From a virus (Duplodnaviria; Heunggongvirae; Uroviricota; Caudoviricetes), in the IMG/VR virus record IMGVR_UViG_3300028886_000047: a stretch of DNA of 64,000 bases. One strand, given 5' to 3'. Both the position numbers and the translations under genes were made by a program. This document shows positions 1 through 35,625 of this stretch, in pieces. Each line of letters starts with the position of its first letter. The stretch's first letter is position 1. The notes below the pieces were generated by a model. It worked only from the letters and a program-made list of their open reading frames with translations. It made no database searches and was not told the DNA's origin.

Positions 1-1251
1 AGAATTTATGCTACATTACAATCTGCAGGTATCCTTATGAATGATGAAGTCCAATAGTCTTGGAAAAATCTTATTACAGGAAAACCAATCACTGCCAAAG
101 ATTTTGAAAACTTTAAATGGACATTACATGCTATTACAGGAGGAACCAATGCAGCAAGAGGACATTTTACAGAAAGAAATGTTGCTAGACAAGTTAAAAG
201 CAATAATAAACCTACTATTGAGACCAAATCTGGAAAGAAAGTTACTTTAACAGAGGATTAGGTAAAGAACATTAATAAAATTGGAGGAAGAAAGGGTCAA
301 AAAGCTGCAGAAGAGGCATTTAAAAAGGCTACAGGAGAAGAAGCAAAAGAAGGAACATTTAGTTTTTAGGAAAATTCAAGAGCTTGGTATAATCCAAATC
401 GTTATTCACAACGTCTTAGAAATTGGACAAGTGATAATGAAAGATTAGTACTTCCTAAAATAGCTCAATCTGTGAATACCCAAGCTATCAATAGATTATT
501 GGAAATTGACAGAGCTAAACCTATTATTGGAGTAGGAAATCCATTAAACAAACGTTTCTGGACAGAAGGAGGCCCAAATAGAGGAGGATTAACTTTTGCT
601 TTAGCTTCCTATCGAAATAATTCACTGTCTCCAATACAAAAGGAAGAAATTAAAAAAGAACTGAAAGCTCTTCCACTTCTTAGAAAACCATATAATAAAC
701 CATCTGTAACTAATTAGGAAGTTATTCCTGAGTCAAGAAGACTTCCACAGCCGGGAGGAGAACATAAGGGAACTAGAATAGACGTACAACGTACTGGAAC
801 TTCTTCAACTAAAAATATTTCTACAGGAGAAGCTGTAAAGGAATTTACTGATTTTGATAGAATGTATATAACATCTACTAGAAAAAACTCTAAAGTTCCT
901 TCTAGAGCATTTGGAAATGGATATGGAACCTCTAAAGAACCGGAAAGTGGTAGTTTAGGTTTTAATGGAATTACCGCTACTGTAACAAAACTTGATGGAG
1001 ATAAAGGATTTTCCATAAGTTTTGGAAAAACTGGCGATACAGTAATTGCCAAATAGTATAAAGATGTTCAACAATTACGAAGTGATTTAGCAAGATAGTT
1101 AAATAAAGTTATCAAAAAATAGCATAATGTTAAGGAAACAGCCGCTCTTTTAAGACAATTTAAAGCTAAAGGTTGGCTTAAACAAGGTGGACAAATTAAT
1201 AATTTTAACTTAGATAAAACAATATCAGAATTTTTAAATAAATAGAAATGA
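1..1251 (+). CDS. late-module protein, 5'-partial, TAG-recoded (frame 1; in-frame TAG at 55-57, 259-261, 367-369 and further downstream); ends TGA 1249-1251
   Basis: Frame 1 is open from position 1 to the TGA at 1249 except for TAG codons. The six-frame track fragments it at every TAG (track ORFs 472..717 and 862..1056 are pieces of it). The stop overlaps the next start (ATGA). Confidence 0.55.
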
Positions 1252-4200
1252 AAATAAGACCTAAAAATAGTGTATTATATGCTGCAACAGGTGTAAGATT
1301 TTCATCTGCAAATGCTGGCGGTGCAAATTGGAGACAATAGGTGTTTAATAATTACCGTCAGCATTTGCTTGATTAGCTTTCCAAATATGGTGAAGCTAAT
1401 GACTATGGTGATTGGTTAAATGAAATGCAGCATAGACATTCTCAATTATGGAACTCAGCAAACCAAAGTGGAAATTGGGAAGATATTGCATATGAAAATG
1501 AGGACGTTGGTAGATATCAACAAGACTATAGAGGAGGCTTAGGTAATGATAATAACTATCAAAGATTTGGAAAAGTTTAGTTAAATCCCGAAGATAAATA
1601 TGATTTTAACTAGACAGGTATTAAAACAAATCAAGCAACAAGATATAATATCCCAGACCCTCCAAGAAGAGTTTCTGGAGATTTCTCCAGAAAAGGATAT
1701 AACTATAAAGTAGATAACTATTATAGTGCTATCACTGACGATAGAAGATTACTTGGTCGTAAAGGAGACTGGGATGAAAATAGTCAAGAATACAAGGATT
1801 GGATTAAACAATTAAATGATAGAGGTTGGACAATGGAATTAGATAACTCTGACCAATATTATAAATTAAAAAGATTAGGAACACCTGACCCTAATAATCC
1901 ACAGCAAAATCCACAACAGAATCCATCTACTCCATATTCTATAACTGGACAACATAACGATAAATATGGATTTGATTGGAATAAAATAGGAGAAGGATTG
2001 AAAAAATTAGCTCCAGACATTCTTGCTGGAGGACGTCTTGCTTATACACTAGCTTCTAATGAACGTATTTTTAACGAACAAGTTGAAGGTATTAGGCCTG
2101 ATTTAAGACAAAGTTATGATACTTATCGTTAGGTAGTTGGTGATGAGGCTGGAAAACAATAGTATTATAGAAGAGCCGCAGAACTTCAAACAAAGGCAGG
2201 ATAGCCTATAGGTTCTGATTAGGATAGAAATCAAGCTTATATGATGGAAGCTAACCGTGTTGGAAATGAGTTAAAATCTCAAGGCGATATTGTTGATAAT
2301 ACTGAAATTAGAAGAACTTCTGATGAATCAAATCAACATCAATGGGCCAACACTTAGCGTCGTACTGAAGTTGCTAATGCAAATATAGCATCAATAAATA
2401 TGGCTAATAAATTACGTCATGATTTATTAGCTTTAAAACATTCAGCTAATGCAACATCTATACAGAATGAATTACTTGCTCGTGAAACAAGACTTAGACA
2501 GAGAGATGCTGAAAGAAGAGCTATTGAGGATTAGATATATGCTTTGGATGCTGAAAATAGATTATAGAATGATACTCAATACCAATCTCTGTATTAGAGA
2601 ATGTCTGATGCTTGGGATAAAGCTATTAAAAAGCATGGAGATAATGCAGCATTAGCTAAACTCGATCCAGATTTTATGGCAGCTCAAAGAGATTTCAAGA
2701 ATGCACAATATAGAATACAACGTATGCAATATTAGCATATGTTAGATAGAGCAAAGTCTGGAATGAAAATTACTTATAAAAAGAAAGATGATTTACTTTA
2801 TAAAACAGCTAGAGATGCAGTAGAACATTTTAGAAAAATGACTAAAATGACTTCTGATGCAAATAATAGACGTAGAATTAAAATAGAAAAATTAACTCCA
2901 CACCCGAAAGGAAATGCTAAAAAATATTAGCAGGGTGGTGTAGCCCCTTTTTTGGTATACACTCCAGCCGTTCTTGGTGGAGAAACCACAACAAGTACAC
3001 AAACTAGTTCTACGAATACAGGTTCCAGTAAATCATCAAAGAAAGAAGGAAGTGATACTCTTGATATGGTTAAAGAATTATTTAAAGCTGCATAGGGTAA
3101 AGGATTACCTTCTGATATGAATAGTGTTTATAAATCTTTAAGTAATTTTTTAGCAAGAGCAGAAGCCTTTGGAACTGAATTATCAACAGACGATATTGCT
3201 AGTATGTATTTACAGCAACTTCAATAGTTAAATACTGTTGAATATATGAAGAATGATTTTGATAAAGCTAAGGAACAAGCTACTAATAATGACGCTTTAG
3301 ATGAATTTGCTGTAGATAGAGCAGGAAATGTCATAATTCAAAATATGGATACTGGCGATATAACTCCTATGAGTTGGAATGATTTCAAGCAAAAGAATGA
3401 TAAAAACTTAAATCCTTTAACTAATAGACAACTTCTTAATATACGTGCAACAAGTCCAGAATATGCTTTTAGAAATGGATTACTTGATATTGTTGGAAAT
3501 GGAGTTGGAATTACCAAAATTTCAGAGTGGATTAAGAGTAATTTGCCGAAAATAGGAGCTACTGAAAATACTTTGGAAGGATATACTAAATAGGAGTCTA
3601 ATTAGATAATTCAAGGTATTGAAATTTTAAAAGACGCTCCGAGTGGGGATTATAAACTTTCTCAATATACTAAAGAACAACAGTAGCAAGCAAAAGCAGC
3701 TTTAAATTATATTATAGGAATGATGCCAAGAAATATGAAAGCTGTTCTTAATATACACGCTGATATGCAAGGTACTACTCCTGATAAATTATTAACATCT
3801 TTAGTTCAATCAGATATAAGTACTAATTATAAATTAGAATTAGACGCTGTTACTGGAAAAGCTGCTAAGGATAAAGATGGAAATAGTAAAGAAGGTTTAG
3901 AAATAAATTCAGCAGTACAATTATTACTAGGAATGTCTAGTCCCAGAGAATTTACATTTAGTATAGGAAATGGTAATAGTTTTACAGGACTTGCAAGAGT
4001 GTCTAGTATTAATGATACTAATGAAACTCCATTTGGAGCTGATTTTTCTTATTCTGAAATTTATAAATCTTCATTAAGAAAAAATTTGGATTTAGATAAT
4101 GCTAGTTTTGGAGATGTTCCAATTAATAAAGCATTAAAAGATCGAATAATTATTGATAATAGTACTATTGCAGGAGTAGATTTACCCTATACAACAGATA

Positions 4201-4730
4201 GTAATGGAAGAATAATTCCTAATTTTAAAATGCTGAATAAAATAGAAGAGGCTGATTAGGAAGTATTAAAGTAGGGAATAAATCCAGAATAGGAACCACA
4301 AAAAGTTAATGAAATTTATGCAAAACACGGACTTCCTATAAAGTATGGAACGGATAATAGATTAACTGGAAGTTATAAAAGATTTGCTGTAGTTCAGGCT
4401 ACTGCTATTGAAGATGTATTTTTAAATAAAAATGGTTTAGCCTCCAATGGAACCCTTACGTTAGTATCTGATGAAAATGAAATTGATAAATATTTAGAAT
4501 AGTTAAAAAATATTACTGGGAAAAAAGATATTGATATGGATAGACCTGGATTATTTACAGGTGATAAAGATATATATAAAGGTTCTATATTTATTCCTAT
4601 AATAGGAGATTTGACGGATGCTATATCTGGTAGTAAAACTGGAAAATTAACCGAAAATAATTATGATGATTATAGAAATAAATGGAGTACTAGAAATTAT
4701 ACAGAAGCTCCCAAATTTGTTAAACAATGA
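1248..4730 (+). CDS. large late/virion-module protein (~1160 codons), TAG-recoded, unknown function
   Basis: ATG 1248, frame 3, continuous to TGA 4728-4730 with many in-frame TAGs and no TAA/TGA. Track ORFs 1833, 2739, 3246, 3720 and 4536 are fragments of this frame. The translation reads as a normal globular protein with a low-complexity PQQNPQQNP stretch. Confidence 0.6.
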
Positions 4731-7700
4731 GTAAGCAAAATGATTATTTTTTAAATTAGTTATATAATCCTGAGTTTAGTCCTGGAGATTTTTAGACCAT
4801 TGGACTAAACTCAGAAAATACTTCAATTGAGAACAAAGATGAATATAAAAAGTTAGAATTAGTTCAAAATAATCCTTTATTATAGACTGATGGAAAATTC
4901 GATGAAAATAAATTTAATAAATTATATGAATAGGCGCTGCTTGGGTTTAATTTAATGTCGAATAGTGCAAGTAACGAAAGATTAGCTACTTCTTATTCTG
5001 CATTTAGAGATGATATTTTTGCTAAATCAGCCAAAAGAACTAATTAGTCAGAAACTTTTATTACTAAAATGCCTAATCCAAATAGATAGTAGATAGGATT
5101 CGTTAGTAATAATATAATGGAAAATCCCAAACAATCAGTTAGGGAAATAGCTCAAAATCAATTGGTTTGGGATGGAGAAACAAATTAGTGGATAAATGCT
5201 CCTAATGATGGATTATTAAATAGGTTAAGTAATTTTATCAATCCAAAAGTTTTAGCACAATATGATGAAGATGAAGATATAAATGGAAAAAAAGCTTCAG
5301 AAATTGGATTTGATAAAGAACATATAGCACATAAAAAAGGAGAAAAGAAAATAAATCCTTTAACTGGAACATATTATTATGAAACTCTTAATGGAAGAGA
5401 TATTTATGGAAGAGACGTTCTTTCTGGATGGGATACATTAACTAAAGATGGCTCATGGATAAATCAATACGATTTTTTTGATTCTGATGATTTAGAAAAA
5501 TCTCCTACAGGATCTTTAATGAAATCTGTAGTTAAAGTAGCTCCTGCTCTTATTCCTACTATAGCACCTTGGTATATAGGGGCTAGAGTTCTTTTGAGTA
5601 GCGCTGATTTATTTGCTAAAGTCGGCAAAATGATTCCAGGTATTGGAAGTGAAAGTCCAATGTTGTCTTATTTAGAAGGATTAAATGCTGCTGCTACTTA
5701 GTCCACATCCGATTAGTCTAGAGGTTCTCAAGAAATGGAAATGCAGGCACATGCCTGGTCTTTAGAAAATTTACTAAATCTTTCAGCTGATGTATTTACA
5801 CAATTAGCTGAACAAAGATGGATGTTTACGCATCTTCCATCTCTTTTAAAAGGAAATAAACTGGGATTTAGTAAAGAAGCTCAAGAAAAATTTAAAAAAG
5901 ATTATGCTGATAAATTAATATAGAAATATAAAGGATTAAATGAATCTGAAGTATTAAATCCATTTGAAAGAGCTATAGATTTAAAAACTGGATCTATGTT
6001 AGAAGCACAAATGGCACTTGAATCTAAATTAGATTCTGCTAATAAATTCGGAGAACATGTTTCTAAACTATATATGACTGGTATAACAGTAGCAGATTCT
6101 TATGAGGAAGCTAAAGATTCTGGATTATCTGACACAGAAGCTGCTATATTTACATTAGCTTATGCTGCTGGAGAATATGGAATTTTAAATACGAATCTCG
6201 GAGAACATATACTTCCAGAACTAAGGGCAGAAAAACATAAATATAGAAATATTGAAAGAGTTCTTAGAGAAGGACAAAAGAATACTTCTGAAGAAGTTAA
6301 AAAAGATCCAAGAAAATGGTATTAGAGACTAATGGGATTTGCTAAAGAAGCTGTAGTTGGTGATTATAATGATGCTAAAATAGCAAAGGCTTACGCTACT
6401 AATTCTACAGCGAAAGCCTTAGCTACAAGTGTTATGTCTAATGCGTTAGGAGAAGGTTTAGAAGAAGTTTCTGAAGAATTATGGTTTGATATAGCAAAAG
6501 GATTACAAAATGCAGCTGTTAATTTAGGTATAACTCAAACAGGAAATAAATTAGAAACCTTTGATGGATGGAATCTCGAACAAACATTAAATAGATACGC
6601 TCTTAATTTTGTGGGCGGTTTAGCAGGTGGTGCCATAGCAGTGGGACTTCCTGGATTTTAGGAAGGTATTAAAAATATGCTTGGAACTAATATGGATTAG
6701 AAACAAGCATATTAGGAATTAATTGCTTTAATTCGTAACGGCAAAAAAGATGATTTTTTAAGAACTATTGATAAATTGGAAACAGCTGATTCGAATTTGT
6801 CGGCTACTGGTTATGAAATTATAGATGGAGAAAAAGTACCAAAACAAGGCACTCCAAATGATAACTAGGACAAAGCTAATAAAACTGTTCTTAAAGGTAT
6901 GGTTAATCTTATTGATAATCTTCTTACTATAAATGGAGTTAAAATGGATGATAAATCTATTTTATCTAAATTAACGGATGCTCCAGCATTGGCAAGATTT
7001 CAAACATTAGTAGGAGGAGAAGAAGTTGGATCAGCTACATTAGCAAACTATCTTCAAAGATTTAATTCATTATCTACTAAAATTGCTGACATAGCTTTAA
7101 AAATAGATGCCATTAAACATCCTAAATATGATTAGAAAGGAAAGCAACAAGCTGAATTACAACAAAATGCTGGAAATTTATCTTCATTAGAAGCGGAAAT
7201 GAAATCTCTTATAGAAGAAAGAGATGCTTATCTTAATGGAGATATGGCTAAAATTGTTATTCCAAAAGTAATATTTGAAATGTCTCCTTTACTTTCAGCA
7301 CCTTTTATCCAAACTAATTTTAAGGATTATGCTGAAAAATTAGAAGGAAAGGTATTAGCTGATATACCAGAATCAAGGTTAAATGAATTAAAAACGTCTT
7401 GGGAAAATTATAAAAACAGCAATTTTAAAGATGATATAGAATTTGCTTTTTAGAATTTCATGTTAATAACAGAAAAATTTTCTGAAGGATTAAAAGCATT
7501 TAATTTATCATATTTAAAAAATCCTAGTGATTATCAATAGAATCTTGGTAATTTATTCAGTTAGACCCAAAATATTATAATGTCTCCAGATAATGAATCT
7601 GAAGATGTTCAAAAGAGTACTCAGAGTTTTGAATAGACTGAAGGAATAGCTAAAATGACTACATTATAGAAAAATATGTAGGCATTACATTCATTGATGG

Positions 7701-10700
7701 AAAATGCTGGACTAGATGTTTCGGATATGAGCATAATGATGAATGTTGGAGAGGCAGTATCTTTAGAAGAGTTACTTCCTGGAGACATAATGAATATAAA
7801 AAGAATAGCTGATTCAATTGGAGAAAGTTTTGATGAAAATTCTTTTACTGAAAAAGATGTTAAAAGAATTAAAGAAAAATTATTAAAAAAGAAAATATAT
7901 GAAACTTTAGTAGAAAATTCTGATAAAGTTAAAGAAGTATTAAATAAAATTAGATATTTTAATCAATCTACAAGACAATATTTAAAAGATTCATTTTTAA
8001 AACTTGTTTATGAGTATGATAAAGATGGAGATTATTTTAATGATCCAGATTTATATGATGAAACTGATCCTGATTATCAATAGGAATTAGCTAAAAGAAC
8101 AGAGCTTTATAAAGAATATACTGCAATAATTGATAGTAAACCAACTACTCCTATAGAACAATTAGCTGATTAGTTTCAGCTGGCTTTAGGAGATAATAAT
8201 CATATAAAAATATCTGATTTAATTACTACTCTACAAAATCAAATGTCTTTAAAAGCTAATCTTGGGGTAATTGAAGAATTTGGTTATGGAGTTGATATTT
8301 AGGAACAATTAAAAAATGCTTCATTAATTATAGATATTTTAGCTTCAAATATTTTAGGAGCTAGAAGTGATGGAGGAAAACTTGGAGCAATATTTGGATT
8401 TAATTCTACAGTAAATTAGCTAAATCCAAATATGAAATTAGCTGAAATAGAAAAGGATTCTGCAAATACCTTAATGTAGGATTTAGCTAAATTAAAAACT
8501 CAACTTGAATATTTTAAAACTATTTTTGATGTAAATAGTGGACAAAAATTGGAAGAATAGAAAAAAATACATAACAGAGTAAACTATTCTTTTATAAAAA
8601 AGATGAAAGCTATTGTTCAAGCTCTTCCTCCTGATGACTGGAACGAAAAAGATGAGTCTGGGATAGGAGTTCTTGATAAATTATTAGCAGCTTTAAACAA
8701 AGCAAGTACTTTTGAATCTATAGATTCTAGTACTGAAGATACTAGATTTAATTTAGATTCTGAAAAATCTAAAAAGTTAGAAAAGGAGAGCATAGAAATA
8801 TAGGATGCATTATATGATTTCTTTCAAACTAATTTATCTAAAATAGAAGATGGAAAGTTAGATTTATCTATGTTAAAGATTCTTCCTTCTACAGACGCTT
8901 TTTCAAATGATTATGAGGGAACGCTTATTGATTCAAATATAGAATAGTTTGATGATAGAAGTGCTGTTATGTTAATGGCTACAGCAGCAGCTGTAAAAGC
9001 TTCTGATTTTTATGCAGAATATAAGAATAGCCTTGTTGATGGAATCGCCCCTATTCCTGGACAAGAACTTGCTACAAGAATGGCTTATTCTTTTTTATTA
9101 AATAAACCAATATTTCAATTATTCGGTAAAGCATATAATGATAAATTATTAAAAGAACTTGAAGGAGTAAATAGTGGGAAACAATGGGCTATGTATGGAA
9201 AAAATGTTTCTCCTAATGGAAAACTTGATAATTCTTATGCTTTGCAATTTTTAAATACTTTTCTTGTAGAAGGTATTCCAGGAGCAGGTAAAACTCAAGG
9301 TTTCCAAAGAGTTCTTTATAATATGTTAAACCAATATCATCCAGAATTACTTGATGAAGTTTGGTTTATTCATACTGATGAAGATAAAGCTAAAGCTTGG
9401 GCAGAAAAACTTGGTGCTGATCCTAATAAATCAAAATTCTTTAGTAAAAAGACATATCTTGAAACAATTTATCCAGGATATACTCCAGCTAAAACTAATG
9501 AAAATGGAGTTATTATTACCAGTAAAGATGAATTATAGGAAGATGGAGAAACTGGAATTTGGCATTTTAAAAATGTTGAATTATCTAAATCAGTAAAAGC
9601 TCCATCATTAATATTAATGGACGAATCTACAAGATTCTCTCAATAGGAAATGCTAGTTTCAGAAGCATTTCAACAAGAACATGATATTAGTGCTATTGCT
9701 ACTGGTGATTACGATTAGATTGGAGCTGTAGGATAGTTTGAAATAAGTGAAAATGTTAAAAATTTCTTAAATACTAGTGCTGATAATTTCTTTCACAGTC
9801 CTAAATTAGGAAGTTCTATGAGAACCGAAAATACTATCAAGGATTAGAATATTGCAGTAGCTAGAAAAAATAAATTGCAGACTATTTAGAAATTAGCTTC
9901 AAATCAATTAACTGAACCCCTTATTAAATTGTCTTATTATCAAGATAATTCTGGATTATATGGTGAAAGAATTATTGGAAAAGATAGTGCTGACTTAGAT
10001 GAAGCTATTACTTTAATGTTTGCTACATTAAAGGGAGAAAAAGATTCTGATGGCAATTGGAAAGGAGAAAAAATAACTGTTATATATTAGGATAAAGACT
10101 CTGATATTTATAAAAAACTATAGAAAATTGCTACAGAAAATGAAAATTATAGAGGAAAAATAAACTTTGTAGAAAGTAGTGCTGCTCAAGGTGATGAGGG
10201 ATAGTATTATATTGTTGATTTAAAACCTGTTGATGTAGGATTAGAAACTACAGCTAACATGGGAAATCATGCTAATTTTGTTAATACTTTTTATACTGCA
10301 ATTTCTCGTTCTTCACAAGGTACTTTAATAATAGAAAATCCTAACATTAAACAAATAGCTGAAACTAATAGAGTAAGAGAACTTGTAAAGAGTCCATTAT
10401 CTGAAGAAGCTAAGGCGAAATTCTCTAAAAATAGAATTGATGTTTTATCTGAAATAATTACATCAGAACCTGGAAAAACCCCAAAAGCTAAACGAAGAGT
10501 TAGTACTAATCCAATAAGAACAACCGAAACAGAAGGAACTGGAGAAGAAGGAACATCAACTTCCGAGGAAGAAGCTACTGAATTAAATAAAAAAACAGTA
10601 ACTATTAAAAACGATAATCCTAAAGAGTATAATATGTTATTACATTCTATGCCTGTCAATGAAACAGGTTTTGTAGAGGATGAGGATGGAAATTTTATCC

Positions 10701-13447: not shown

Positions 13448-13448
13448 T

Positions 13449-19400: not shown

Positions 19401-22400
19401 GAATTAATTGCTCCAAAAAATTATAAAACTACTTTTGGATTATAGACTGGAGACAATGTTTAGGAAATATCTTAGAATAAGTTATTCTTCTTAAAAAGAA
19501 TGATTGACAATCAATACAGATTAGAAAACGGGCATTGGGTAGATAGAAATCCAATTTCTTCTGATAAATATGACATTATTCTAAAAACAGTTTCAGGAAA
19601 GTCTTATCCAATATTATATAAGTCTGATACAACTAAAATTCCAGAAGGGTTAAGTGTAATCACAGAATAGGATTTTTATGCAAATCTTGATTGGGATGGC
19701 AGTAAAGTTTACAGATTAAATGGAGATGGTGATAGAATTTATGAATTACCTTATCATAAAGATTCTTCTGGAAAGATAGTTTATGATGCAGAAATACTTG
19801 TCGATGAAAATGGAAATGAAGTTATTTATACTGATAAATTAAATTTCTTTGTAAATAAATTACAATTTAATTATGTTGATTTTGGAAAAAATATATTAAA
19901 TCTACCATTTATTTATGATATATTTAAGCAATTAAGTACTTCTAAGAAAAATTCGGTTAAACAATTATCTTCTAATTATTTATCAGAAATTGAACAATTT
20001 AATCAAGTTTCACGTTTAGAAGATAGAATAAATAATGAAAAAGATGAATAGAAAAAATAGGATTTGAGTACTAGATTAGTATAGATTACTTCTGGTGAAG
20101 AATTTAACAAATAGTTAAAACAACAAATATCTGAAGGATTTAATTTAAGAGATTAGTATTTAACCCAATTAAATACTGAAATTTTAGCTGGAGAAATTAA
20201 AGGAAATTATACTGGAATGTTTGCTCAGATAATTAACTCTGCTATTGAAACACATACATCGTTTATTAAATCTTTAGATTATATTGTTTCTAGAACTCCT
20301 GCACAATCACATCAATCGTTCATGCCTATGAAATTGGTAGCATTTGATGAATCAGATGTTAATAGCGCTTATGTAAGTCGTTATCAATTATATTTGCAAG
20401 GTTCAGACTTTGATGTAGATAAAGCTAGTTTACTTGGAAGTATTATACGAAATGGAAGGTATGTTGTATGGAGTCCCTTTATGAGTTTATAGTCTATAGA
20501 ACATTTAAGAGCTTCTGAAACATTACCATTTCCAACTGGAAAACAATTAGAAATAAGAGAAAGTCTTAATAGTCGTGTATATGATAAAATGGATAAACCT
20601 GTTCATTTAGTTTGGCATGATGATACAAGGATAACTTTTACTTTGCCAAATTTTGAATAGGAAATATATTTAGCAAAGAATCAATCTGGTATATGGGTAT
20701 CTAATTTAACTCAAGATATTATGAGAAATTAGATGACTCCAATGGAGGTATATTTAATTGAAAGAGCTATTACAGATAAAATCTCAGAAGGAGAAATATT
20801 TGACGCTCAATTTAATATAAGTCATTTAGGATTTAATGAAAATCGAGTAAAGGATTCTTCTAAATATTTATATGAAAAGGATTTTGAATAGTTTATAAAT
20901 TGTTTTGCTCCTATATTTGATTATAACGAAAAAGGGCAATTAGAATTTAATAAACTTACTGGAAGAGTAAGGCATATAATTGACAATATTGGCAATGAAC
21001 CACTTCAATATGATACTATATCTTACGAAAATTTAACACAAGATTAGTTAAAATAGAAATAGATTAATAATATAAAACAATTATCTATTTTAATTAATGC
21101 TTTAAATTCCTTTGGATAGATTCCAAAAGTAATGTCTAATGATTTAATGACAGCAATTTATAAAACTGTTAATGAACATAATTTATATTTTGTTAATTCT
21201 TTTGATACTAAAGACGCTGTAGTTAATTACATTAGTAGTAACATGTTTTAGATTTCTAGTGATCCAGTAAATTTAGTACAAGCTATGACTTCTGTGGATT
21301 AGCAGACTGATTATGTGAAAGAAGAAATTGCAAATAAGTCTCCGTTAGCTGAACAATCTAAACATTTTGATAAAGGAAATATAATGTCAATATTTAGATT
21401 ATTAAGATTAACCTTATCTGGAAAACAAAATACAGGTATAGAAGCATCTTCATTGAAAGTTATGGAAGCTATCAATCAATATTAGGATGTTATTCTTAAT
21501 TATGGTTCAGACGAAGAACAAAAATCATTAATCAAACCTATAAATATAGGAGGCTATAATATAGGATTAATATGTAATGCTTATTGTAAAAATATAGCAA
21601 ATATTAAATCTAAAGAAGTATATGACGCATTACAAGAAATCGATAATGATAATGACCAAGCTATATGGTTATCAGCATTCTTAAGTCTTAGTACTGACAA
21701 CGCTAAGGATCCTACTCTTGCTAAAATAAATGCTAATCCAGAAATGATTGGACTTTATAATTCCGGATTTGTGTTAGGATTGCCTATAAGTTTTTTATCT
21801 AAAATAATAATGTCTCCTACAGGAATGGCTATTGCCGATGTTCAATAGGGGGATATATTTCTGGGTTATAATAGTTCCAGAGATATAGGAAGAGTTATAA
21901 ATTATATTAAAGAAGGTCCTAGACTCAGTCCTAATATGACTACATTAGAAATATTAGGAAAAGCTATTCAACTACATAATCCCGGAGAAGTTACTATTTT
22001 TAATCTAAATAAACAACTTATTAGAAATTACTGGGATTAGTCTTAGTTATTAACAGCAAGAAGAATTATTGCATTAGCCAAAAGTCTTGCTTATGGTAAA
22101 GAAGGAGAAAAAATAGAATATAATATCCCTACTATTGAATCTAGATTATCTAGAGATATCTAGGTAACAAGACGAAGAATTTCTGGAATTAGTAAAGCTT
22201 TAGAAGCTAAGAAATAGCAAATAATTGAAAAAGATACCTTAGGAAGAAAACATAAAAAACTTGATGAAGATGTTACTGCATTAACAGCGTCTTTAGAAGA
22301 ATTGAATACAAAACTTACTGAATTACAAGATATTAAAAATGAATATAAAATAACTCAAACTATTCCTCAAAGTAGAAATGAAGGAGATTAGTATGATTTA

Positions 22401-24323
22401 TATGAAAAATACCTTGAAAATTATAATTCTATTAAAGATGGAGAACAGTCTGATTCTTTGAAAAAATTATTTTAGGATAATAAAGAATATATACAGAATT
22501 CTTCTAACTTCAAAAAGACTATTTAGGATATTGAAAACTGGTTAGATACTATTGAATAGGTTCAAATGGATGAAGGATACACAGATGCTGAAGGAAATAA
22601 ATATAGCACTGTAAAAATATTAGAATAGTTAAATGAATTTGCTTCGGAAATGTCCTTAATACGTCCAAATCTCAGCCTCAATCAACAACTTCCTAATTCT
22701 AAAGAAAATCAACTTTCATTTATTAAAAAATTTGAAAATATGATAAATGATAGAATTACCTTAGGAAAAGTTGAGAATGCAAGTAAAATCAATGAAATAT
22801 AGGATTTCAAAGACTTTAACGAGCGTAAAGGGATTGAGGGATTAAATATTTCTATATCTGAATTTGTATGGGATGAAGAATATAGAAATGCTGCAATAAG
22901 AGCATACGATTCTATTAAATTTAAAGTGAATGCTTTAGATGTACTAGTCAAAGTGCCTCATTATTTTGGATATTTAAAAGCTTGTGATGCTTTATATCAG
23001 TCATTAGCTTATCAGTCAGTACAATATAGAGAACAAGACAGAATCTTAAGTAAAATAATCATAGGAGATTTAAAAATAAAAGCATCCAAAGATATTTAGT
23101 CAAGATTGAAAGTTGCTTCTAGGTATATTTCTAGACAAATGAATAATATGTTCTTATTAGAACAAAATATAGAATTAACTATTCCTAAAATAACTGATGG
23201 TAAAGTTGATACTTCTGTAAAAGTTCCAATTAAATTAGGTACAAAAGAAGGAAATGAAGCGTTCAAAGAATGGATGGATTTTGTAATTATTCCTCAGTAG
23301 AAATCTAAGTATAAATCTAATAGATTTTTAAATGAACTTTCAGAGGCGGCTTATCATAAATCTGATAATCATAATACAATTATAAATTATACTACTAACA
23401 TAGATAGTATGACAAATAACCCTACCGAAGTTACAAAATTTGCTGAAATAACTGAGGGATTTAATAATTTGCAATCTAAAACTATAGGAGATTTGCCGTT
23501 AGTAGAAGCTTTCTTTTATTATGATTTAATAGCTTATGATAGATAGCCAGGTCAGTTATCATTAACTCCGATTTTTAATAAATTAGTAGCATTAGGGAAA
23601 ACTAAAGTTATTTCCGATTATGTTCAATTTGTATCAGACTTGGATTAGGGAGGCAATATTATTTTAACTTTAGATGAAAGTTAGATAGATGAAATTAAGA
23701 GATTTATAGCTCCTGTTATTTCCATTTATGCTTTAGATGAATTTGATGAAGAATATGGGTGGGTAAAAGATCCAGAAGACTAGCAATTTTATCTTATAAA
23801 GAGAAATCCTAAGCCTAAAAATAATAAAAACGATGATTTTGGCGCAATGGACGATCCTAATATTGATAATCCAGAAATAGATATTGAAGGAATAGGTCCT
23901 GATGGTGATATTAATTAGGAAGAAAATCCTGAAAATCCTCAATATTAGCAAATTACCTTGAGTTCTAAATTAGCAGAACTTGAATGGGAGCCTGGAGTTC
24001 GTAAATTCGAAAGAATTACAGATTCTGGAAATTTAAATAGCCCTTATATTGAAAATTTTATAGTTCAAGAACAACAAACGTTATTAGAAGGACAGGGAAT
24101 AATTACACCTAAAGAAATAAGATTCGGAAATGATTCAATTACATTAGATGATGGAAAACCTAATATTCCAGATAATATCAGAAAGAGATTACAAGAAATT
24201 ACTGGACAAAATAACATAGATGATTTAATAGTAACTAAAGTTATAGTTGAAGGCTCTTCTAGAGAAACTGTAATTGATATAGATACTACGAAAGGAAATT
24301 TAGAAAACCCGTGTAAAGGATGA
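13449..24323 (+). CDS. giant late-module protein (3624 codons), TAG-recoded, unknown function
   Basis: ATG 13449 lies 1 nt after the previous TAA. Frame 3 is open to the TGA at 24321-24323. I checked codon by codon across 20460-22060 and 13446-14700 and every interruption is TAG. Track frame-3 ORFs 14418, 14712, 14910, 15678, 16470, 17271, 17991, 18477, 20217, 23106 and 23958 are fragments. Confidence 0.55.
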
Positions 24324-24373
24324 TAGCATGTGAAATAAATAAAAACTCGTTTGAATACCAGACATTGAAAAAT

Positions 24374-25375
24374 ATGTCTGGTATTTCCGAGTATTCTTTA
24401 GATAGTTATATATCTACATTCTAGACAAAATTTAATAGAATGCCTAAGTTAGATGAATTACCTAGAGTTAACTCGGAACCTTATTTAGAGAAAGTTTTAG
24501 GAATTAAGAAATTATCTAATATAAGGACTATTAATACTAATAGACTACTAGAATATACAGGAACAAATTCTGTAGAAGAAGCAAATATTAAGTTAAATTC
24601 TATATATAAAGATTTAGAAATTACTTTAACTCCATTTTAGAGTTTTACTTCTATTGAAGTAAGACATAGGCCATCTGTATATACATCAATTAAAGAGCCT
24701 TTAAATATAGAAGAATTCAAATAGGATGGAGCTACCATTTTATCTAAACAATTAGATAAAATGTAGAAACTGTATGGGATAAATATAATTCCTGTTTCTA
24801 GTGATGAAATATAGGAATTAGGAATTCCTAATGGGTCTTAGGTTAAGGGATTTGTGAAAAATGGAAATATTTATATAAATATTGAAAATTCTACAATGGA
24901 TACTAAAGTACACGAATTAATGCATATATTTCTAGGAGGAATAAGATATTCTAATCCAGAATTATATTTTTCATTAGTTAATCAAGTAGAATAGCTCCCT
25001 AGATATTAGGAATTTTCAGAAAGATTTCCTAATAGAACAAGAGGTGATATTAACGAAGAAATATTTGTTCAAGAGTTTGCTAATTATTTAACTAAATCTC
25101 CTAGTATATTTGATAATTTTGAAAATACGAGTGAATTAATGTATGAAATATACAGGAATATAGATACATTAATAGATGGAAATTATAGTGTTAAATCTTT
25201 ACAAACTTCAGCGTTTGGAGAAACTTTGGAAAATTTATATAAAAATTTACAATCAGAAAATATAATTAATAAACAAACAGGTTCCTTAGATGATTCAACT
25301 TTACATAGGACACTTGCTAATGTAAAAGAAAATTTAATGAAAAAGAATTTATTGGAGGAAAGATGTGATGGCTAA
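24374..25375 (+). CDS. late-module protein (333 aa), TAG-recoded, unknown function
   Basis: Frame 2; first ATG after the upstream stop. In-frame TAGs at 24422 and others. Ends TAA 25373-25375. Track ORFs 24440 and 25139 are fragments. Confidence 0.5.
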
Positions 25376-25442
25376 TTGTAAATATATATTAGGATAGAGA
25401 GTTTTTAATTCAGAAATATAGTTAGACGATTATCTTTCTGAA

Positions 25443-28400
25443 ATGAAAAATTTATATAAATAGTTTGGAGATGAAGTATTTAGTAAATCTTGGACTCCTG
25501 TATAGCAAACATATAGACAAAAATTATTTTCTTAGAAGGAATAGCTAGAAAAAGCTATCAAATCAGGAAAAATAAAGCTAGAAATTTCTGATATGGAAGA
25601 TTTAGATTTAGATGGAATAGTAGATTCCGCTGAAGGAAGAGGTGTTACTTCTATAATGTAGGAATTAAAAAGTTTAGATAATAAAAACGTATTTCCTATT
25701 TTTAACAAAGATAATTATTGGAATAATATAAGAGGAGAATTACGAGACGGAAATTGGAATAGTGATAAAATTAAAGATTTTATTCCATATATATTTGACG
25801 AAAGAGACTCTGAAGGAAATTATATAACACATCCTATAACAACAGAGGAAGAATTTAATCAGATAAGAAATAGGATAGAATCTATGTGGAAATAGCAAGG
25901 ATTAATAGGAACCGTTGTTCACGATATATTTGATATTTTATATTCAAATTATACTACTGAAAATGGAACTAATATTAAAAATTTGCCAAAACAATAGTTT
26001 AAAGAGGAAATTAAAAGAATATTATCTAAAAAACCAGAACCTAATGCCTATCGTAAATTATTAAATGAATTTGGAACCGATTTAAATAAAAATAATAGTT
26101 TTTTAGAGAGTGTTATAGATAATGCTCTTAAATTTAATGAGGATTTGAAACAACAATTTGATCCTAAAAATGAAGGATTAATGGTGCTTCCCGAAATTAC
26201 TATAAAAGGTATGGCTACTCTAAATAATCAATTATTTAAAGTAATAGGACGTATGGATATGGTAGTAATTAAACCTGATGGTGAAGTACATATAATCGAT
26301 TATAAATGTTCTCCTAAAGAATATCGAAATTATAACGAAGCAAAAAAATTAACTTTTAATTATCAATTAGCAGTATATAGAAGAATTCTACAACAATTAG
26401 GAATAAATAAAGATCAGATTCATTTATGGGTAGTTCCGATTTAGTTTACTAATTTTGATATAGATAAATCTAATAATTTAGTAACTTTAGATGGAGTAAA
26501 ATTACGTGATGGCGCTACCTTTGAAGAATTAGAAGTATCTTCTCCTACTGTAAATGCTCATAAGTATCAAATAGTTGAAGATAACTTAAATAATTCATTC
26601 AAATATGAACACGTTGAAGATGTTTCTGATGAACATATTCTTGAAAAAACGAGAAATTGGATAAGAAAAGTATTTCCTGAATATTCTAAAATTTCGGAAG
26701 TAACCGACGAGAATGTATTAGATTTTTGCAAAAGAAGAAAATGTGTAGTATAGGATGAAAAAACTGGAAAATGGGGATTTAGACGATATAAAAATGCTGA
26801 TTTGAAATATGTTAAAGATACAGAACAAGAAGTAATAAATGCTATCAAACAAGAGTGGGAAAATAATAGATAGAGAAATTTAGAAAGTACTAAATCTATA
26901 AAGAGAGAATTAAAAAAAGCTCAAAAAGAAAATTTAGGCAGAGGAGCTTTGTTTAATATTACACTATATTCTAAAGATAAACAATCTTAGAAAACTCCTG
27001 ACTGGGCACAGCAAATTCTTCAAAAATATGCTAATGAAGATTGGACAGTAGAAGAAACTCCAGAAGCTCTTGATTCTTTAGGAATAATTCTTGTTAGAAA
27101 TTTAACAACTGATAGAATCGATGTTATTAAATTATCTTCTACATACGATTTAGATGCTGAAATAGGTTTTGGCAATAATAGAACAACATTATTTGGAAAC
27201 TTTGTGTCTGACCATGTTGCAAAGAGTTAGCCTAATTCGTTAGTAATGCAAAGTACTAGAGGAAATGTAGAACTTATGGAAACAATGTATGCTTTAAATT
27301 GTATGCCTAGTATATTTAATAACGATAATGCGTTTTTAGGAGAAATTCAAGTAATATCTCATTATAATGAAGGAGGAGGAGCTAATAATAAATCTTTATT
27401 GTATAATTTTTAGAAATTAATGAATTATTCTAATAAAGAAGATTCGCCAGAAGTTAATTATTTTAATAATAAAAATATAAAAGTAGCTTCATTTGTACAA
27501 TTAGCTTAGGATACTTTAACTAGAATAATTAATAATAATCGAGGAACAAGATGGAACAAATTTGAGGAAGCTTCTAATAATTTACACAAATTTCAAGGTA
27601 ATAAAGAACAAATACTTTCTGAATTAATTAAATTAAAACAGCAAATAGAAAACGTTCCAGGATTTGAATATTTAGCCAGAGATGGAGTGATGACTTCCAT
27701 ATATGATGATTATAATTCTCCAGAAAAAAGGTTATATGCAGAAGTAATGTTAGCTATAGGAGAAATAGGAGGGTTAACTTATCAACAACAAACTAAAGAC
27801 CACGCTAACATTTTTGAAGGAAACAGTTTAATAAAAGCTTTTTTATGGGATGGATTTAATGGAAATCTTACTGACAACCCTGGAACTCTTCGAAGTGAAA
27901 CCTTAAATCAAGCTTCACATCTTGTAGATGTTGCTTATTAGAATATTCGTGATTAGTTATTCAAATATAAAAATAATTTAGAAAAAATATTAGATGAATA
28001 TAAATAGTATAAGGGACAATTTGCTAGTTAGAAAGATTTATATGAGAATTTTTATAATAAAGATATAACTGATGATTTAGTTTTTAAAAACCCCTTTGTT
28101 CCAAATAACGGATTAGATGATATGGAAAGGAAAGTTTTAAAAGCTATATTGTTGGATATTGCTCATAGAAGAAATTCTACAATTATTAATGAAGATACCT
28201 TGAGATCCGCAATTGAAAATGACTCTGATTATCTTTTAGTTCCATTAATTAAAAGTACTAGTAAACCTGTAACTAAATCATTAGGTGATTTTATGTCTAG
28301 AACTAGAAAGTTCTTAATGGGATTTAATATTAAAAATGCGAAAGATTCTTTAAAGGAAAAGTTATTAGATTTTACATCAAAAGAATCTATAAATGAGCCT

Positions 28401-30257
28401 AATAGGGAGGAAACTATATGGGAAATGACTAATTCCATAGATATTAATCCCGAAAATAGAAAAGAAAGGATAACTTTAGGAGGAGGCATAGAAAATTTTG
28501 AAACTAATTTAGAAATGTTGGCATTAAAACATGAATATGCTTATATTTAGAAACAAGAAGTTAATAAAATATTGCCATTTATGAAAGCCCTTTCAATTCA
28601 TTTGGCTAATCAAGGAATTATATTAAATGATAATTTTGAAAATGACCTAAATTATATCTAGAATTTTATAAAAGCTAAAATTCAAAATAAAAAATTATAG
28701 GATATTTAGTCGTTAGATAATTCATTTGTTTCTGATTTAATGAAAGGAACTTCAATATTAGCATTAGCGTTTAATCCCAAACAGCTCTATCAAATAATAG
28801 ATGGATTGTGGAAAGATATAAGATTAATTGTACAAAATGCTCATCGAGAGGGTGATGTAAATATGTCATTTAAAAATTTTAAGGATTCATTTTTTTGGAT
28901 AATACAAGATGTTGCAAAATTTAATGGAGAATTATCTATAGGAGAAGCCTTGAATCAATTATATGGAATTAATGATATGGATATAAACTAGCTTCCAAGT
29001 AGATACGCTAAAGATACTTATGGAACAGATAGGCTTCAAAAAGCTATGTTTAGATTTGCGTCAAGGCCTGACTATTATAATCGTATGACTATTTTTGGTG
29101 CACAGATGAGAGGAGACGGTTGTTTTGAAGCTCATTCAATAGTTGATGGTCAGTTAGTATATGATTGGACTAAGGATAAACGTTTTGATATATTTGCTAA
29201 ATATAAAGGAGATATATCTAAAGTTCCTACTTCAGAACAAAATAAATTCAGACAATAGCAATCTTTATATAGTGCTATGGCAGACGAAATGGTTAAAGAT
29301 GGAACTTTAAATCCTGATGGAACTAAATTTGTTAAAGATATGAAAAATCCTAAACCCCTTCCAAAAGCTTATACAGTAAAATAGTCTGAATCAATGAAAG
29401 CATTAGGAGATAAAACTTATGGTTATTATGCTTCTGAAAAGAAATCATTAATACAAAGTTTTACCTTAGGAGCTATTATATTTCAAATGAATACGTTCTG
29501 GTCTTCCAAAAAGAATCAATATTTCTCTGGAAGAGGTTATACTTAGGAAGGGGAATTTGTTGATTATGTTGAAGAAAATCCAGAAGATCCAGAACATCCG
29601 ATAGAATATTGTTAGAAATACAATAAAGAAACAGGAGAAATGGATATAATAAGAAAAGATGTTGAAGACACTGGAATCCCTTATAAAGTGTGGAAAGGTC
29701 GTCCTCAAGAGGGAATAGTAATAACTCTTAGTCATATGATAGCTAATATAATTACTGGAGAAAGAGATTATGAGGGAATACGTTTTTGGGACCCATATTG
29801 GAATGATGATGACCCCTATCTTAGAAAAATGTATAGAGCAAATCTTAGACAATTATTAGCAGACTTACTTGGAATGATATTGATTGGTATGATAATATCT
29901 CCCAGTCTAGTAAATGCCGCAAATAGTTATGCTAAAGAAACGGGTTCTGAAACCATAGGAGAAGCGACAATGGGATATTTAGCCACTTTATCTGCGGGGA
30001 TGTTACAAACATCTACTGATGATTTTAATTTTACAAAATCAGTATTTGGTAGAGGTATTCAATGGACTCCTTTTTCTTTACAATCTGGAACTAGATTTTT
30101 AACTAATTGTGGAAATTGGTTATTTGGAGATTAGGATTTTTATGATACATTAACAAAACAAATAGCATTTACAAGAAATGCTAAACCTATTATGAACTTT
30201 ATAAAAAATGAAACTCTCGGCAGAGACATAGGAGATAATGGAAAATCTAAAGAATAA
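25443..30257 (+). CDS. large late-module protein (1604 codons), TAG-recoded, unknown function; hydrophobic segment near the C-terminus
   Basis: Frame 3. ATG 25443 is the first ATG after the frame-2 stop. Open to TAA 30255-30257 with only TAG interruptions. Track ORFs 26145, 27687, 28122, 28740, 29046 and 29640 are fragments. Confidence 0.55.
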
Positions 30258-30282: not shown

Positions 30283-30324
30283 AAAAAAAAAATAAAGGAA
30301 GAATGATATTCATTCTTCCTTTTT
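30283..30324. terminator. bidirectional intrinsic terminator: A-run, perfect 10-bp inverted repeat ggaagaatga/tcattcttcc (30297-30319), T-run
   Basis: Seen directly. The hairpin is flanked by aaaaaaaaaataaa upstream and ttttt downstream. It sits between convergent genes ending at 30257 (+) and 30310 (-). Confidence 0.6.
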
Positions 30325-31020
30325 CCATATATATTTTCCAGCTGTTTTATATTTTCCTTTACAACATAATGAAATACTAGATTGAGAAATTCCCGTAATA
30401 CTACTAGCTTCTGAAATAGATTTATAATTTTTTAAGAAATTTCCAGTTAAGTCGTATTGTTTTACATTATAAGTATTATATTTATTTGCTTTTTCTAAAA
30501 CATTTTTTAAAGTATCTCCTTCTAATAGAGCATAACTCCAAATATAATTTTTATATTTTGTACGTTCTCCATTCAAAACTCTATATATCTTTGATGGATT
30601 AAATCCATCAATTGATGCCTAATTAGCATTATTCCATTCTTTTATAAAATTTCCTTTTAAATCATACTAATATACTTTTTTTCTAATAATATTTTTCTTA
30701 TCATTTACATTATCAGGATTAAACTCTTTTACCCAATCTTTTAAATCTCCTATATCTATTTTATATTTTGAAAATATTCTTAATACTTCCGGATTTTTCT
30801 AAAATAATTCTCTACTTATTTTAAAATTTTTACATAAAGTATGTAATTCTTTTTCAATAATTTTATCTTCTTTTTCCTAATCCAATGTAGTTTTAGGATT
30901 AACTATTAAATTAACTAACTAAACATTTTCTCTTGCGTTTTTAAATGAAGAAAATCTTTTATAAATATTAGAAGTGATTCCAATTTTATAACAAGTCTAA
31001 AAATCAAATAAATAAATCAT
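30310..31020 (-). CDS. T5orf172 (GIY-YIG-like) domain plus two NUMOD1 DNA-binding repeats; homing-endonuclease-like; requires TAG readthrough (5 in-frame TAG)
   Basis: ATG at 31020-31018. N-terminus MIYLFDFQTCYKIGITSNIYKRF matches the T5orf172 pattern. Two repeats Y(Q/TAG)YDLxGNF(I/L)K and ISEASSITGIS match NUMOD1. In-frame TAGs at 30619, 30667, 30799, 30877, 30919 and 30997. The track shows only the 3' fragment 30310..30576. Confidence 0.6.
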
Positions 31021-32716: not shown

Positions 32717-33290
32717 AATACTCTTTTAATAAATTAATAACATTAGGATTAACATATCTGCTTAAATGCTCATCTGAATAATGAGCATCCATTTTATTTC
32801 TAGTTCTTAATATTTCTCTAATTCGAGTAGACGATATAGAATTTGCTGGCCTATCACATATTAGAAAATTATAATCTTGAATTATTGCTTCACCATTCAT
32901 CCAATCTGGAATATCCTTAATAGTATCTTCTCCACACAAAATATATATTTCATCATTACAATATTTATTCTTTAAAGCATGGAGAGTAGCATAACTATAA
33001 TAAGGTGGAATAAGTTCTTTTTCTATTAGAGAAATTAATAAATTAGATTCTATTTCGAAATCATTATCAAAAGTATATGGAAAAAATATTTCATTTCTCT
33101 CAATTAAACTATTAATAATAATTAAAACCCTTTTATTAATATCAAGAACTTCCTCCTTTTTCCAAGGATTTTGCATTGTTGGAACAATAATTACTTCATC
33201 CATTTTAAAGTCATTTAAAGCAGTTTTAACACACTCTAAATGACCATTATGAAATGGATTAAATGAACCAAGATATAATGCAATTTTCAT
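32706..33290 (-). CDS. nadD: nicotinate-nucleotide (NaMN/NMN) adenylyltransferase, NadD family
   Basis: GSFNPFHNGH (HxGH nucleotidyltransferase motif) and the C-terminal ISSTRIR motif of NadD. Confidence 0.7.
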   Translation of the reverse strand: MKIALYLGSFNPFHNGHLECVKTALNDFKMDEVIIVPTMQNPWKKEEVLDINKRVLIIINSLIERNEIFFPYTFDNDFEIESNLLISLIEKELIPPYYSYATLHALKNKYCNDEIYILCGEDTIKDIPDWMNGEAIIQDYNFLICDRPANSISSTRIREILRTRNKMDAHYSDEHLSRYVNPNVINLLKEYYDN

Positions 33291-33418: not shown

Positions 33419-33441
33419 CTTATATTAAATTTAAAATGATT

Positions 33442-35549: not shown

Positions 35550-35625
35550 AAAAATTTGTTTTTAAAAGTTGAAGAAATTATATTTAAAAATATTATGAAA
35601 AATATGATGAATATTATAAATTCAA

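Follow-up and report, generated by a model that had tools for sequence, protein, structure and literature searches.

The window, i.e. the whole 64-kb stretch of phage DNA analysed here, is divided into two convergent blocks of genes (Table 1). On the + strand, limiting the stop codons to TAA and TGA yields six contiguous open reading frames (ORFs) between positions 1 and 30257, g1 to g6, and on the - strand lies a block of replication and nucleotide-metabolism genes, which includes genes for an SPFH protein, a nucleotidyltransferase, metallophosphatases, a split PolA, a sigma-70-like factor, a ligase, RNR and exonucleases. These blocks are referred to below as the late and the early block, respectively, labels that were assigned by homology and gene order. 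Between them lies a hairpin that, as judged by a consensus scan only, resembles a bidirectional terminator.

Table 1. Coordinates of the genes and other features in the 64-kb window. The fourth column gives the extent of the ORF bounded by TAA or TGA.
Feature	Coordinates	Strand	TAA/TGA-bounded ORF	In-frame TAG	Terminator	Description
g1	1..1251	+	1-1251	8	TGA 1249	C-terminal 416 codons; start upstream of window
g2	1248..4730	+	1242-4730	23	TGA 4728	1160 aa
g3	4727..13447	+	4724-13447	52	TAA 13445	2906 aa
g4	13416..24323	+	13416-24323	68	TGA 24321	3635 aa
g5	24320..25375	+	24317-25375	8 (53% of Gln codons)	TAA 25373	351 aa
g6	25368..30257	+	25341-30257	30	TAA 30255	1629 aa; N-terminal PD-(D/E)XK nuclease domain
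Hairpin	30294..30322					Palindromic, G+C-containing; A-run on one side, T-run on the other; between convergent + and - blocks
m1	30310..31020	-		6 (75% of Gln codons)		236 aa; T5orf172/NUMOD1 homing-type endonuclease
Early block	31274..64000	-				Replication/nucleotide metabolism
m2	40518..41240	-		9 (100% of Gln codons)		240 aa; HNH/endonuclease VII-type endonuclease
m3	56031..57140	-		10 (53% of Gln codons)		369 aa; DUF723-repeat homing endonuclease

An earlier note on this DNA had claimed that the six + strand genes are broken in frame by TAG only, and the counts bear this out: across the 10,097 codons of g1 to g6 there are 189 TAG codons and not a single internal TAA or TGA, and all six gene-end stops that it had given are reproduced exactly. 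TAG makes up ~2% of the late-gene codons. The remaining two frames of the same genes contain 1,262 TAA and 694 TGA, or 0.097 per codon, a density from which the probability of meeting none in 10,097 codons is ~10^-447 (10^-327 from base composition alone); a comparable density of TAA and TGA, named beforehand as incompatible with a sense reading of TAG, is seen nowhere inside the g1 to g6 frames. Under the standard code, the longest pieces that these frames yield measure 234 and 330 aa, each terminated by TAG. Once TAG is taken as sense, the block resolves, as had been proposed, into large proteins, and a public protein collection holds the same ORFs called from identical DNA (1160, 2906, 3635, 351 and 1629 aa).

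The reading of the block as pseudogenes, as TAG-delimited short genes, or as a sequencing or assembly artefact has nothing more in its favour than the fragmentation of the block by standard-code gene callers, the JGI calls within g2, for example, being pieces of 64 and 36 aa only. It is ruled out on several grounds, the first being the single type of stop in frame with the above probabilities. Furthermore, standard-code relatives encode unbroken full-length orthologues; those of L006 (2684, 3120, 361 and 1586 aa) keep the gene order of the window and align through the window's TAG positions, which refutes the short genes. The window DNA was also found identical in three independent assemblies. 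Finally, when TAG is translated as Gln, the dN/dS ratios against the close relative L178 are 0.079 for g4, 0.088 for g5 and 0.038 for g6, values that show these three genes to be under purifying selection. TAG is a sense codon in this phage.

The proteins of the late block are large and mostly lack matches to described families. In the source contig L085, the full-length g1 encodes 954 aa with 21 TAG codons, and its product has no match in Pfam or PHROG; the ATG of g2 overlaps the g1 stop (ATGA). The g3 product carries a P-loop NTPase-like segment at residues ~1512-1674 (GIPGAGKT ... LILMDE), which matches Pfam AAA_30 with an E-value of 0.008, under the curated cut-off, and its 2684-aa orthologue in L006 is 32% identical. 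An HExxH motif (VHELMH) was found in the g5 product, for which searches including Pfam returned no family match. The nuclease domain of the g6 product matches Pfam PDDEXK_1 (E 8.8e-10), and the protein has a weak tblastn link to gp077 of the Suoliviridae crassvirus cr1_1. The largest protein, that of g4, contains the conserved motif ...SRTPAQSHQSFMPMKLV...LQGSDFDVDK (DxDxD), of which GSDFDVDK is kept across homologues. It has no sequence match in Pfam, PHROG or PDB, its AlphaFold model is poor (pLDDT 50) and returned nothing at E < 0.1 in Foldseek, and an hhalign comparison with an approximate fragment of the E. coli beta-prime subunit was not significant. With cr1_1, hhalign aligned the DxDxD segment, and that segment only, with gp076 (E 1.4e-4, probability 52%). 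From this one motif-level match together with synteny, the product of g4 is probably a virion RNA polymerase of the large-subunit-like type that belongs to the crAss 'transcription block'; its identity to any IMG/VR relative is at most 34%. The virion RNA polymerase of phage phi14:2 is gp66.

The comparison with cr1_1 extends to the organization of the whole locus. As in the Crassvirales transcription block, the genes encode giant proteins (4551 aa for gp076 and 2007 aa for gp077 in cr1_1), they end the structural module and are convergent with the replication module, and the gene with the DxDxD segment is followed by another giant gene with a PD-(D/E)XK domain; outside the DxDxD motif, no sequence similarity is detectable. 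On the same contig, a 1645-aa gene that ends ~8.4 kb before the first position of the window encodes crAss_MUZ (Pfam), which is also encoded by L006, and this gene and the architecture shared with cr1_1 uphold the Crassvirales connection that had been raised for this DNA. The upstream muzzle, lysozyme (6 TAG) and DUF192 genes are recoded too. The source is supported as a large crAss-like gut phage, with a G+C content of 28.7% and a genome of at least 150 kb (two overlapping contigs; a near-identical protein set is found on a 177-kb contig). In IMG/VR it has 220 relatives with contigs of up to 190 kb; among 72 loci examined, 54 use the standard code, 12 are TAG-recoded and one is TGA-recoded.

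Relatives at different distances were used to determine which residue aligns with the TAG positions, a check that had been suggested along with the proposal that TAG most likely means Gln. In L178, which shows 94-97% amino acid identity, the window's TAG codons are aligned with TAG 85 times, with CAA 16 times, with CAG 10 times and with other codons three times, and in the reverse comparison the TAG codons of L178 face TAG 85 times, CAA/CAG 31 times and other codons five times, so that CAA or CAG is the partner in 57 of the 65 TAG-to-non-TAG exchanges. For L004 (~70% identical) the partners are TAG in 61 cases, Gln codons in 41, other sense codons in 53 and gaps in three, and for L005 (~60% identical) TAG in 42 and Gln codons in 35; in both, Gln codons are the most frequent partner after TAG itself. 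In L006, Q stands at 19 of 136 TAG sites (background 3.4%). In a likelihood ranking of the 20 residues, Gln comes out on top in L004, L005 and L006, with leads of 132, 63 and 5.3 log units, respectively. In addition, codon 1615 of g4 (GM-TAG-LNPEH) falls in a column that is Q in 15 of 15 standard-code homologues. That TAG is sense but specifies another residue, e.g. Glu, Lys, Tyr or pyrrolysine, seems very improbable: it could appeal to the narrow lead over the runner-up, Lys, in the distant L006 and to the 'Pyl' label that ARAGORN conventionally gives to CUA anticodons, but it is opposed by the exchanges with L178, by the leads in L004 and L005, by the invariant Gln column and by a tRNA(CUA) of the family that matches tRNA-Gln (see below), and no Pyl machinery turned up in the Pfam or PHROG scans of window genes. 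The codon partners, the likelihood ranking and the invariant column agree in showing that TAG stands for Gln in this phage.

The early block is different. Its 37 ORFs with 100 aa or more contain no in-frame TAG among 8,617 codons, and TAG accounts for none of their 256 Gln codons, vs 189 of 517 (~37%) in g1 to g6 (Fisher p = 7e-40). These ORFs end with TAA in 17 cases, with TGA in 19 and with TAG in one (42001-42939), which would reach a TAA 15 codons further on if the TAG were read through; all other genes called, the late ones included, end with TAA or TGA. TAG is essentially never used as a terminator in this phage, and the recoding separates the late genes from the early ones. It ends at 30.3 kb, and the exceptions beyond this point are the three endonuclease genes m1 to m3, in which TAG is the dominant Gln codon (53-100%). 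The m2 gene lies directly downstream of the C-terminal piece of PolA, and its product matches PHROG 3322 (E 1.8e-34) and PHROG 1035 (E 2.2e-33); that of m3 matches PHROG 559 (E 1.3e-85). Two GIY-YIG endonuclease genes of the early block are TAG-free, which brings the number of endonuclease genes to five within 34 kb.

This arrangement has close counterparts in the literature. Yutin et al. 2021 (PMC7886860) described TAG-to-Gln recoding of late genes for three crAss groups, Beta, Delta and Zeta, and proteomic proof of it, one Zeta-group phage included, was given by Peters et al. 2022 (PMC9523058; summarised in PMC10136315). As in the Zeta group (PMC7886860), in-frame TAG codons are confined to the structural, transcription and lysis block and the standard code suffices for the replication block, TAG means Gln, the genome is large (here at least 150 kb; relatives 175-190 kb; range for the Zeta-like phages 145-192 kb), TAG-recoded, TGA-recoded and standard codes alternate among close relatives, homing endonucleases are densely packed and some core genes are split. 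By these shared traits the Zeta group appears to be the best match for the phage, whose TerL, MCP and portal genes lie outside the window and the flanks covered. Yutin et al. (PMC7886860) reported that frameshifts and further stops interrupt the Zeta RNAP ORFs as well; unlike these, the giant RNAP-block ORFs of the window are intact when TAG is decoded.

How TAG is decoded was approached by a search for tRNA genes. The 64-kb window yielded no tRNA with a CUA anticodon, and neither did ~99 kb of the phage's contigs (from -8.7 kb to +90.4 kb in window-equivalent coordinates), although a cluster of eight tRNAs lies there, two of them structurally aberrant; a custom hairpin scan for tRNA(CUA) and the regions around the helicase in six TAG-recoded relatives gave none either. 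Neither a suppressor tRNA nor a gene for a release factor or a synthetase has so far been located in this phage. On the other hand, the relative L150 does carry a tRNA(CUA) that matches, in both the acceptor and the T arm, the tRNA-Gln(CUG) of L176, L151 and L152, which in L176 adjoins tRNA-Arg(UCU). Because the ~99 kb contain no tRNA(CUA), the decoding agent is one that we infer: most likely it would be a phage-encoded amber suppressor derived from tRNA-Gln, with a CUA anticodon, that the host GlnRS charges and whose gene lies outside the ~99 kb searched. Alternatively, TAG might be read as Gln by a suppressor that the host encodes, by a host tRNA-Gln carrying a modification, by a tRNA of highly aberrant structure or by some other factor. 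We consider this unlikely: the search covered ~99 kb of a genome of at least 150 kb, and the family member L150 has a tRNA-Gln-derived tRNA(CUA); moreover, we know of no bacterial hosts with a native amber-to-Gln code. The alternative draws on the empty ~99 kb despite the tRNA cluster there, on the aberrant structure of the two cluster tRNAs and on the six relatives lacking a tRNA(CUA) near the helicase, as well as on reports that suppressors occur in only 40% of TAG-recoded phages (Borges et al. 2021, 10.1101/2021.08.26.457843) and that recoding and suppressors are mismatched in the Zeta group (Yutin et al. 2021, PMC7886860).

Taken together, we hold it highly probable that the recoded + strand block, which extends upstream of the window, consists of late virion-associated genes of a large crAss-like phage, the giant 'transcription block' genes, in which TAG stands for Gln; the recoding would serve as a translational lock. 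A lock on late genes was proposed by Borges et al. 2021 (10.1101/2021.08.26.457843), and the phage resembles the lock phages of these authors in its low GC, its lack of TAG stops and its recoded structural and lysis genes. Following this model, from which we infer the temporal function, the replication genes, since they lack TAG, would be readable by a host ribosome without modification as soon as infection begins, and the late genes, since they need TAG decoding, would be finished only after such decoding sets in. The lock would restrict the virion and lysis proteins, and likewise the homing endonucleases of m1 to m3, to the late phase. Borges et al. (10.1101/2021.08.26.457843) also found an early-region homing endonuclease to be preferentially recoded in a TGA-recoded Agate phage; here, unlike in that case, the phage is crAss-like and TAG-recoded, and the bias is seen in three endonuclease genes, with TAG at 53-100% of their Gln codons. 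A bolder reading, in which TAG is decoded without a canonical phage suppressor tRNA, through a host factor, a modified tRNA-Gln or one of the aberrant tRNAs, and near-exclusive TAG usage may also hold the homing endonucleases within early operons silent until late in infection, appears quite doubtful to us.

Late-gene recoding of TAG to Gln is already published and proteomics-confirmed for crAss-like phages, and no new principle is involved here. What the locus sharpens is a point already recognised in the field as open, namely how TAG is decoded where a suppressor tRNA cannot be found. It also bears on annotation: the standard code splits the 30-kb block into hundreds of meaningless fragments, and code 15 recovers six large proteins, a probable virion RNA polymerase among them. 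Split coding inside a single genome is illustrated very cleanly by the window, which fits the published model in which recoding would time the expression of the late genes.

The window is AT-rich, with a G+C content of 28.7%. When ORFs were called on the + strand of 1-30257 with stops restricted to TAA and TGA, six contiguous ORFs (g1-g6) were found to span this region. An earlier note on this DNA had claimed that these frames are interrupted by TAG only, and had named beforehand TAA or TGA within them as the contrary finding; neither occurs inside any of the six, and the terminal stops that it listed were matched exactly. The two off-frames of g1-g6 contain 1,262 TAA and 694 TGA codons, and the probability of meeting neither across 10,097 in-frame codons is ~10^-447, or 10^-327 if calculated solely from base composition. 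Each g gene overlaps or adjoins the next; two of the junctions, at 1248 and 4727, are ATGA overlaps, as is, judging from the coordinates, a third at 24320. Such an arrangement is typical of one operon.

TAG-containing genes of the window and TAG use in the two gene blocks
Feature	Coordinates	Strand	In-frame TAG	TAG share of Gln codons
g1, open frame	1-1251	+	8	
g2, open frame	1242-4730	+	23	
g3, open frame	4724-13447	+	52	
g4, open frame	13416-24323	+	68	
g5, open frame	24317-25375	+	8	
g6, open frame	25341-30257	+	30	
g1-g6, late genes				189/517 (37%)
37 replication-block ORFs, >=100 aa				0/256
m1	30310-31020	-		75%
m2	40518-41240	-		100%
m3	56031-57140	-		53%

A search for homologues of g4, in which the TAG positions of the query were set to X against bias, returned full-length proteins of ~3,600 aa, and the reading of the TAG-delimited fragments as short independent genes is thereby rejected. 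The DNA of four homologues was retrieved; that of L001 matches the window exactly across g4, and two additional assemblies (L002 and L003) encode an identical g4 protein and carry the same gene set, which rejects an assembly artefact. In L178, a TAG-recoded relative with 94-97% amino acid identity, 114 aligned window TAGs correspond to 85 TAG, 16 CAA, 10 CAG and 3 other codons, and in the reverse comparison the TAGs of L178 fall on 85 TAG, 22 CAA, 9 CAG and 5 other codons of the window. The same pattern was found in the more distant recoded relatives L004 (~70% identity), where 61 of 158 window TAGs lie opposite TAG and 41 opposite CAA/CAG, and L005 (~60% identity), where the counts are 42 and 35, respectively. 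The g4 orthologue of the standard-code relative L006 lacks TAG, and has Q at 19/136 of the window-TAG sites versus a background of 3.4%. An empirical likelihood, built on the substitution profiles of these same L004, L005 and L006 alignments, ranked Gln first against each of them, by margins of 132, 63 and 5.3 log units, respectively; this ranking and the codon exchanges with L178 argue against any other residue at TAG. Furthermore, in the conserved g4 core, codon 1615 is a TAG (GM-TAG-LNPEH) in a column that is Q in 15/15 standard-code IMG/VR homologues. With TAG taken as Gln in the protein alignment, dN/dS against L178 is 0.079, 0.088 and 0.038 for g4, g5 and g6, respectively, and 0.18 for the g3 tail, which indicates functional genes rather than debris and speaks against a pseudogene reading of the block. 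The comparisons thus show that TAG stands for Gln in the late genes: Gln is the best residue in the alignments to all four relatives as well as at the invariant column, as the earlier note had proposed, and both its observation and its interpretation were borne out overall.

The functions of the giant proteins were approached through several searches. PHROGs and Pfam gave no match for g1, g2, g4 or g5, GenBank phages gave only distant matches to the giant proteins by megablast and tblastn, and g4 matched no PDB sequence in single-sequence or profile searches; g6 bears a PD-(D/E)XK domain. A conserved segment of g4, SRTPAQSHQSFMPMKLV...LQGSDFDVDK, matches gp076 (4551 aa) of cr1_1, a classified crassvirus (hhalign E 1.4e-4, probability 52%), and cr1_1, like the window, has giant + strand genes followed by a replication block on the opposite strand. 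A 'transcription block' with a DxDxD protein is a crAss hallmark (Yutin et al. 2021, PMC7886860). The alignment of g4 to an E. coli beta-prime fragment was not significant by hhalign, and AlphaFold modelled g4 1200-2389 poorly (pLDDT 50), making the Foldseek result uninformative. As structure prediction failed, we infer from this one motif, synteny and the literature that g4 may be an RNA polymerase.

The - strand half of the window (31-64 kb) consists of replication and nucleotide-metabolism genes, including PolA, ligase, RNR, exonucleases, metallophosphatases, a nucleotidyltransferase and a sigma-70-like factor. By homology and gene order we refer to these as early genes and to g1-g6 as late genes, and their TAG use differs sharply (Fisher p = 7e-40). 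The early ORFs stop at TAA (17), TGA (19) and TAG (1), so TAG is not a terminator among them, and the early genes were shown to be readable under either code. The sole TAG-rich genes on the - strand are m1, m2 and m3, all homing-type endonucleases, in which the TAG share of Gln codons exceeds that of the late genes. The same recoding bias was reported by Borges et al. for the intron endonuclease of a TGA-recoded phage (10.1101/2021.08.26.457843). Two GIY-YIG endonuclease genes in the replication block (42001-42939 and 60808-61728) contain no in-frame TAG.

The first of these GIY-YIG ORFs, on the - strand, is the only early ORF with a standard-code TAG end; with TAG read as Gln it runs 15 codons further to a TAA (41956-42939), so that its C-terminus would differ before and after a code switch. 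It lies within a split family A DNA polymerase gene (41264-44710, -), between an N-part with the exonuclease and Pfam polymerase positions 29-193 (43034-44710) and a C-part with positions 217-373 (41264-41923). An Rfam scan of the window gave no match, and no group I intron at this site, so that the insertion cannot be called a group I intron; it may be an intron, or the two parts may be separate subunits.

Several other genes of the replication block were observed. A complete sigma-70-like factor (regions 1.2, 2, 3 and 4; PHROG 351, E 1e-61) is encoded at 45999-46838 (-), by a phage that apparently also brings a giant RNA polymerase of its own. The - strand operon ends with a gene for an SPFH/flotillin-like protein (31274-32716, -; Band_7 E 2e-20, Flot), after which comes a strong hairpin resembling a terminator (31219-31262); m1 sits between this and a second, palindromic hairpin (30294-30322). 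A cytidylyltransferase-like nucleotidyltransferase and an isochorismatase-family protein, both NAD-related, are encoded at 32706-33290 and 34974-35549 (-), and L005 carries NAD synthase and NAPRTase (27675-28532 and 29577-30713); together these may represent a phage NAD salvage set.

Two ENA contigs from a single sample (ERZ27256887) correspond to the window, k141_1258196 (117,654 bp) and k141_324866 (32,480 bp), which by coordinate arithmetic overlap by ~140 bp, giving a genome of at least 150 kb; SRR9008756/57 are further source samples. A 177,009-bp JGI contig encodes identical or near-identical copies of the phage's proteins, with the helicase and a 55-aa protein among the identical ones. 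Upstream on the same contig, the Pfam crAss_MUZ (muzzle) domain occurs in a protein of 1645 aa; other recoded genes, a phage lysozyme and a DUF192 protein are also encoded there, and TAG is present in every upstream gene but one. This TAG-free gene (237 aa, HTH/DnaD_N-like; L085 4436-5149, ~4 kb upstream of the window) lies amid the recoded late block, directly before the DUF192 and lysozyme genes (6 TAG in each), and may encode a regulator needed ahead of the code switch. An IMG/VR scan with the g1 fragment found no relatives; the g4 core has 220 there (contigs up to 190 kb, identity <=34%). Among 72 relative loci checked, 54 are standard-code, 12 TAG-recoded, 1 TGA-recoded and 5 unclear, and the G+C content (L011-L082) is 26-32% in TAG-recoded and 30-41% in standard-code loci, in line with the published view that a low GC content comes before recoding. 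The size of the genome, its homing-endonuclease load and the switching of code among its relatives match the 'Zeta' group of Yutin (PMC7886860), of which the phage is a candidate member on these genome traits.

TAG-to-Gln recoding is already published for this phage group, and has been confirmed by proteomics in crAss-like phages, one of them from the Zeta group (Peters 2022, PMC9523058); code-15 translations of the window DNA were also already stored in a public protein collection. What remains new is the strong TAG bias of endonuclease genes within a TAG-free block and that no suppressor was found, the latter an issue already recognised in the field as open. The window has no tRNA genes. The window and >150 loci were searched with ARAGORN, and the source contigs were walked via exact-protein look-ups; no tRNA(CUA) was found in the ~99 kb from -8.7 kb to +90.4 kb in window-equivalent coordinates, out of a genome estimated to be ~50-75 kb longer. 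A custom anticodon-hairpin scan and Rfam (evalue mode, tRNA cluster) likewise gave no tRNA(CUA), relaxed ARAGORN gave junk output, and a metagenome scan with further homologue search and look-ups yielded none for this phage. On the walked contigs, eight tRNA genes are clustered (Ala, Thr, Met, Cys, Lys, Arg, Glu and Pro), and CUA is not among their anticodons. At L087 6230-6456 (same phage, ~15 kb past the 3' end of the window), the Lys(UUU) (90 nt, enlarged D region) and Arg(UCU) (89 nt, long extra arm) genes of this cluster are aberrant, with a 5'-half remnant of a canonical tRNA-Arg directly upstream, and the relative L090 has normal Lys(UUU) and Arg(UCU) tRNAs (74-75 nt) in the same place.

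A tRNA(CUA) does occur in the relative L150 (1770-1840); an exact-pattern scan with it returned only its own contig. Its acceptor and T arms are those of tRNA-Gln(CUG) in L176 (2570-2642, adjoining tRNA-Arg(UCU)), L151 and L152 (3816-3888), and it differs from these siblings in having CUA in place of CUG as its anticodon, with the anticodon stem altered to compensate. By this likeness it is a predicted amber suppressor and the sibling tRNA-Gln(CUG) its putative ancestral form, so that a CUG-to-CUA change would enable the family to turn tRNA-Gln into an amber suppressor. In the published model (Borges 2021, 10.1101/2021.08.26.457843; Yutin 2021, PMC7886860), early genes would be translated by the unmodified host apparatus, and a suppressor produced during infection would then unlock the late genes; the split between late and early genes seen here fits such a lock.
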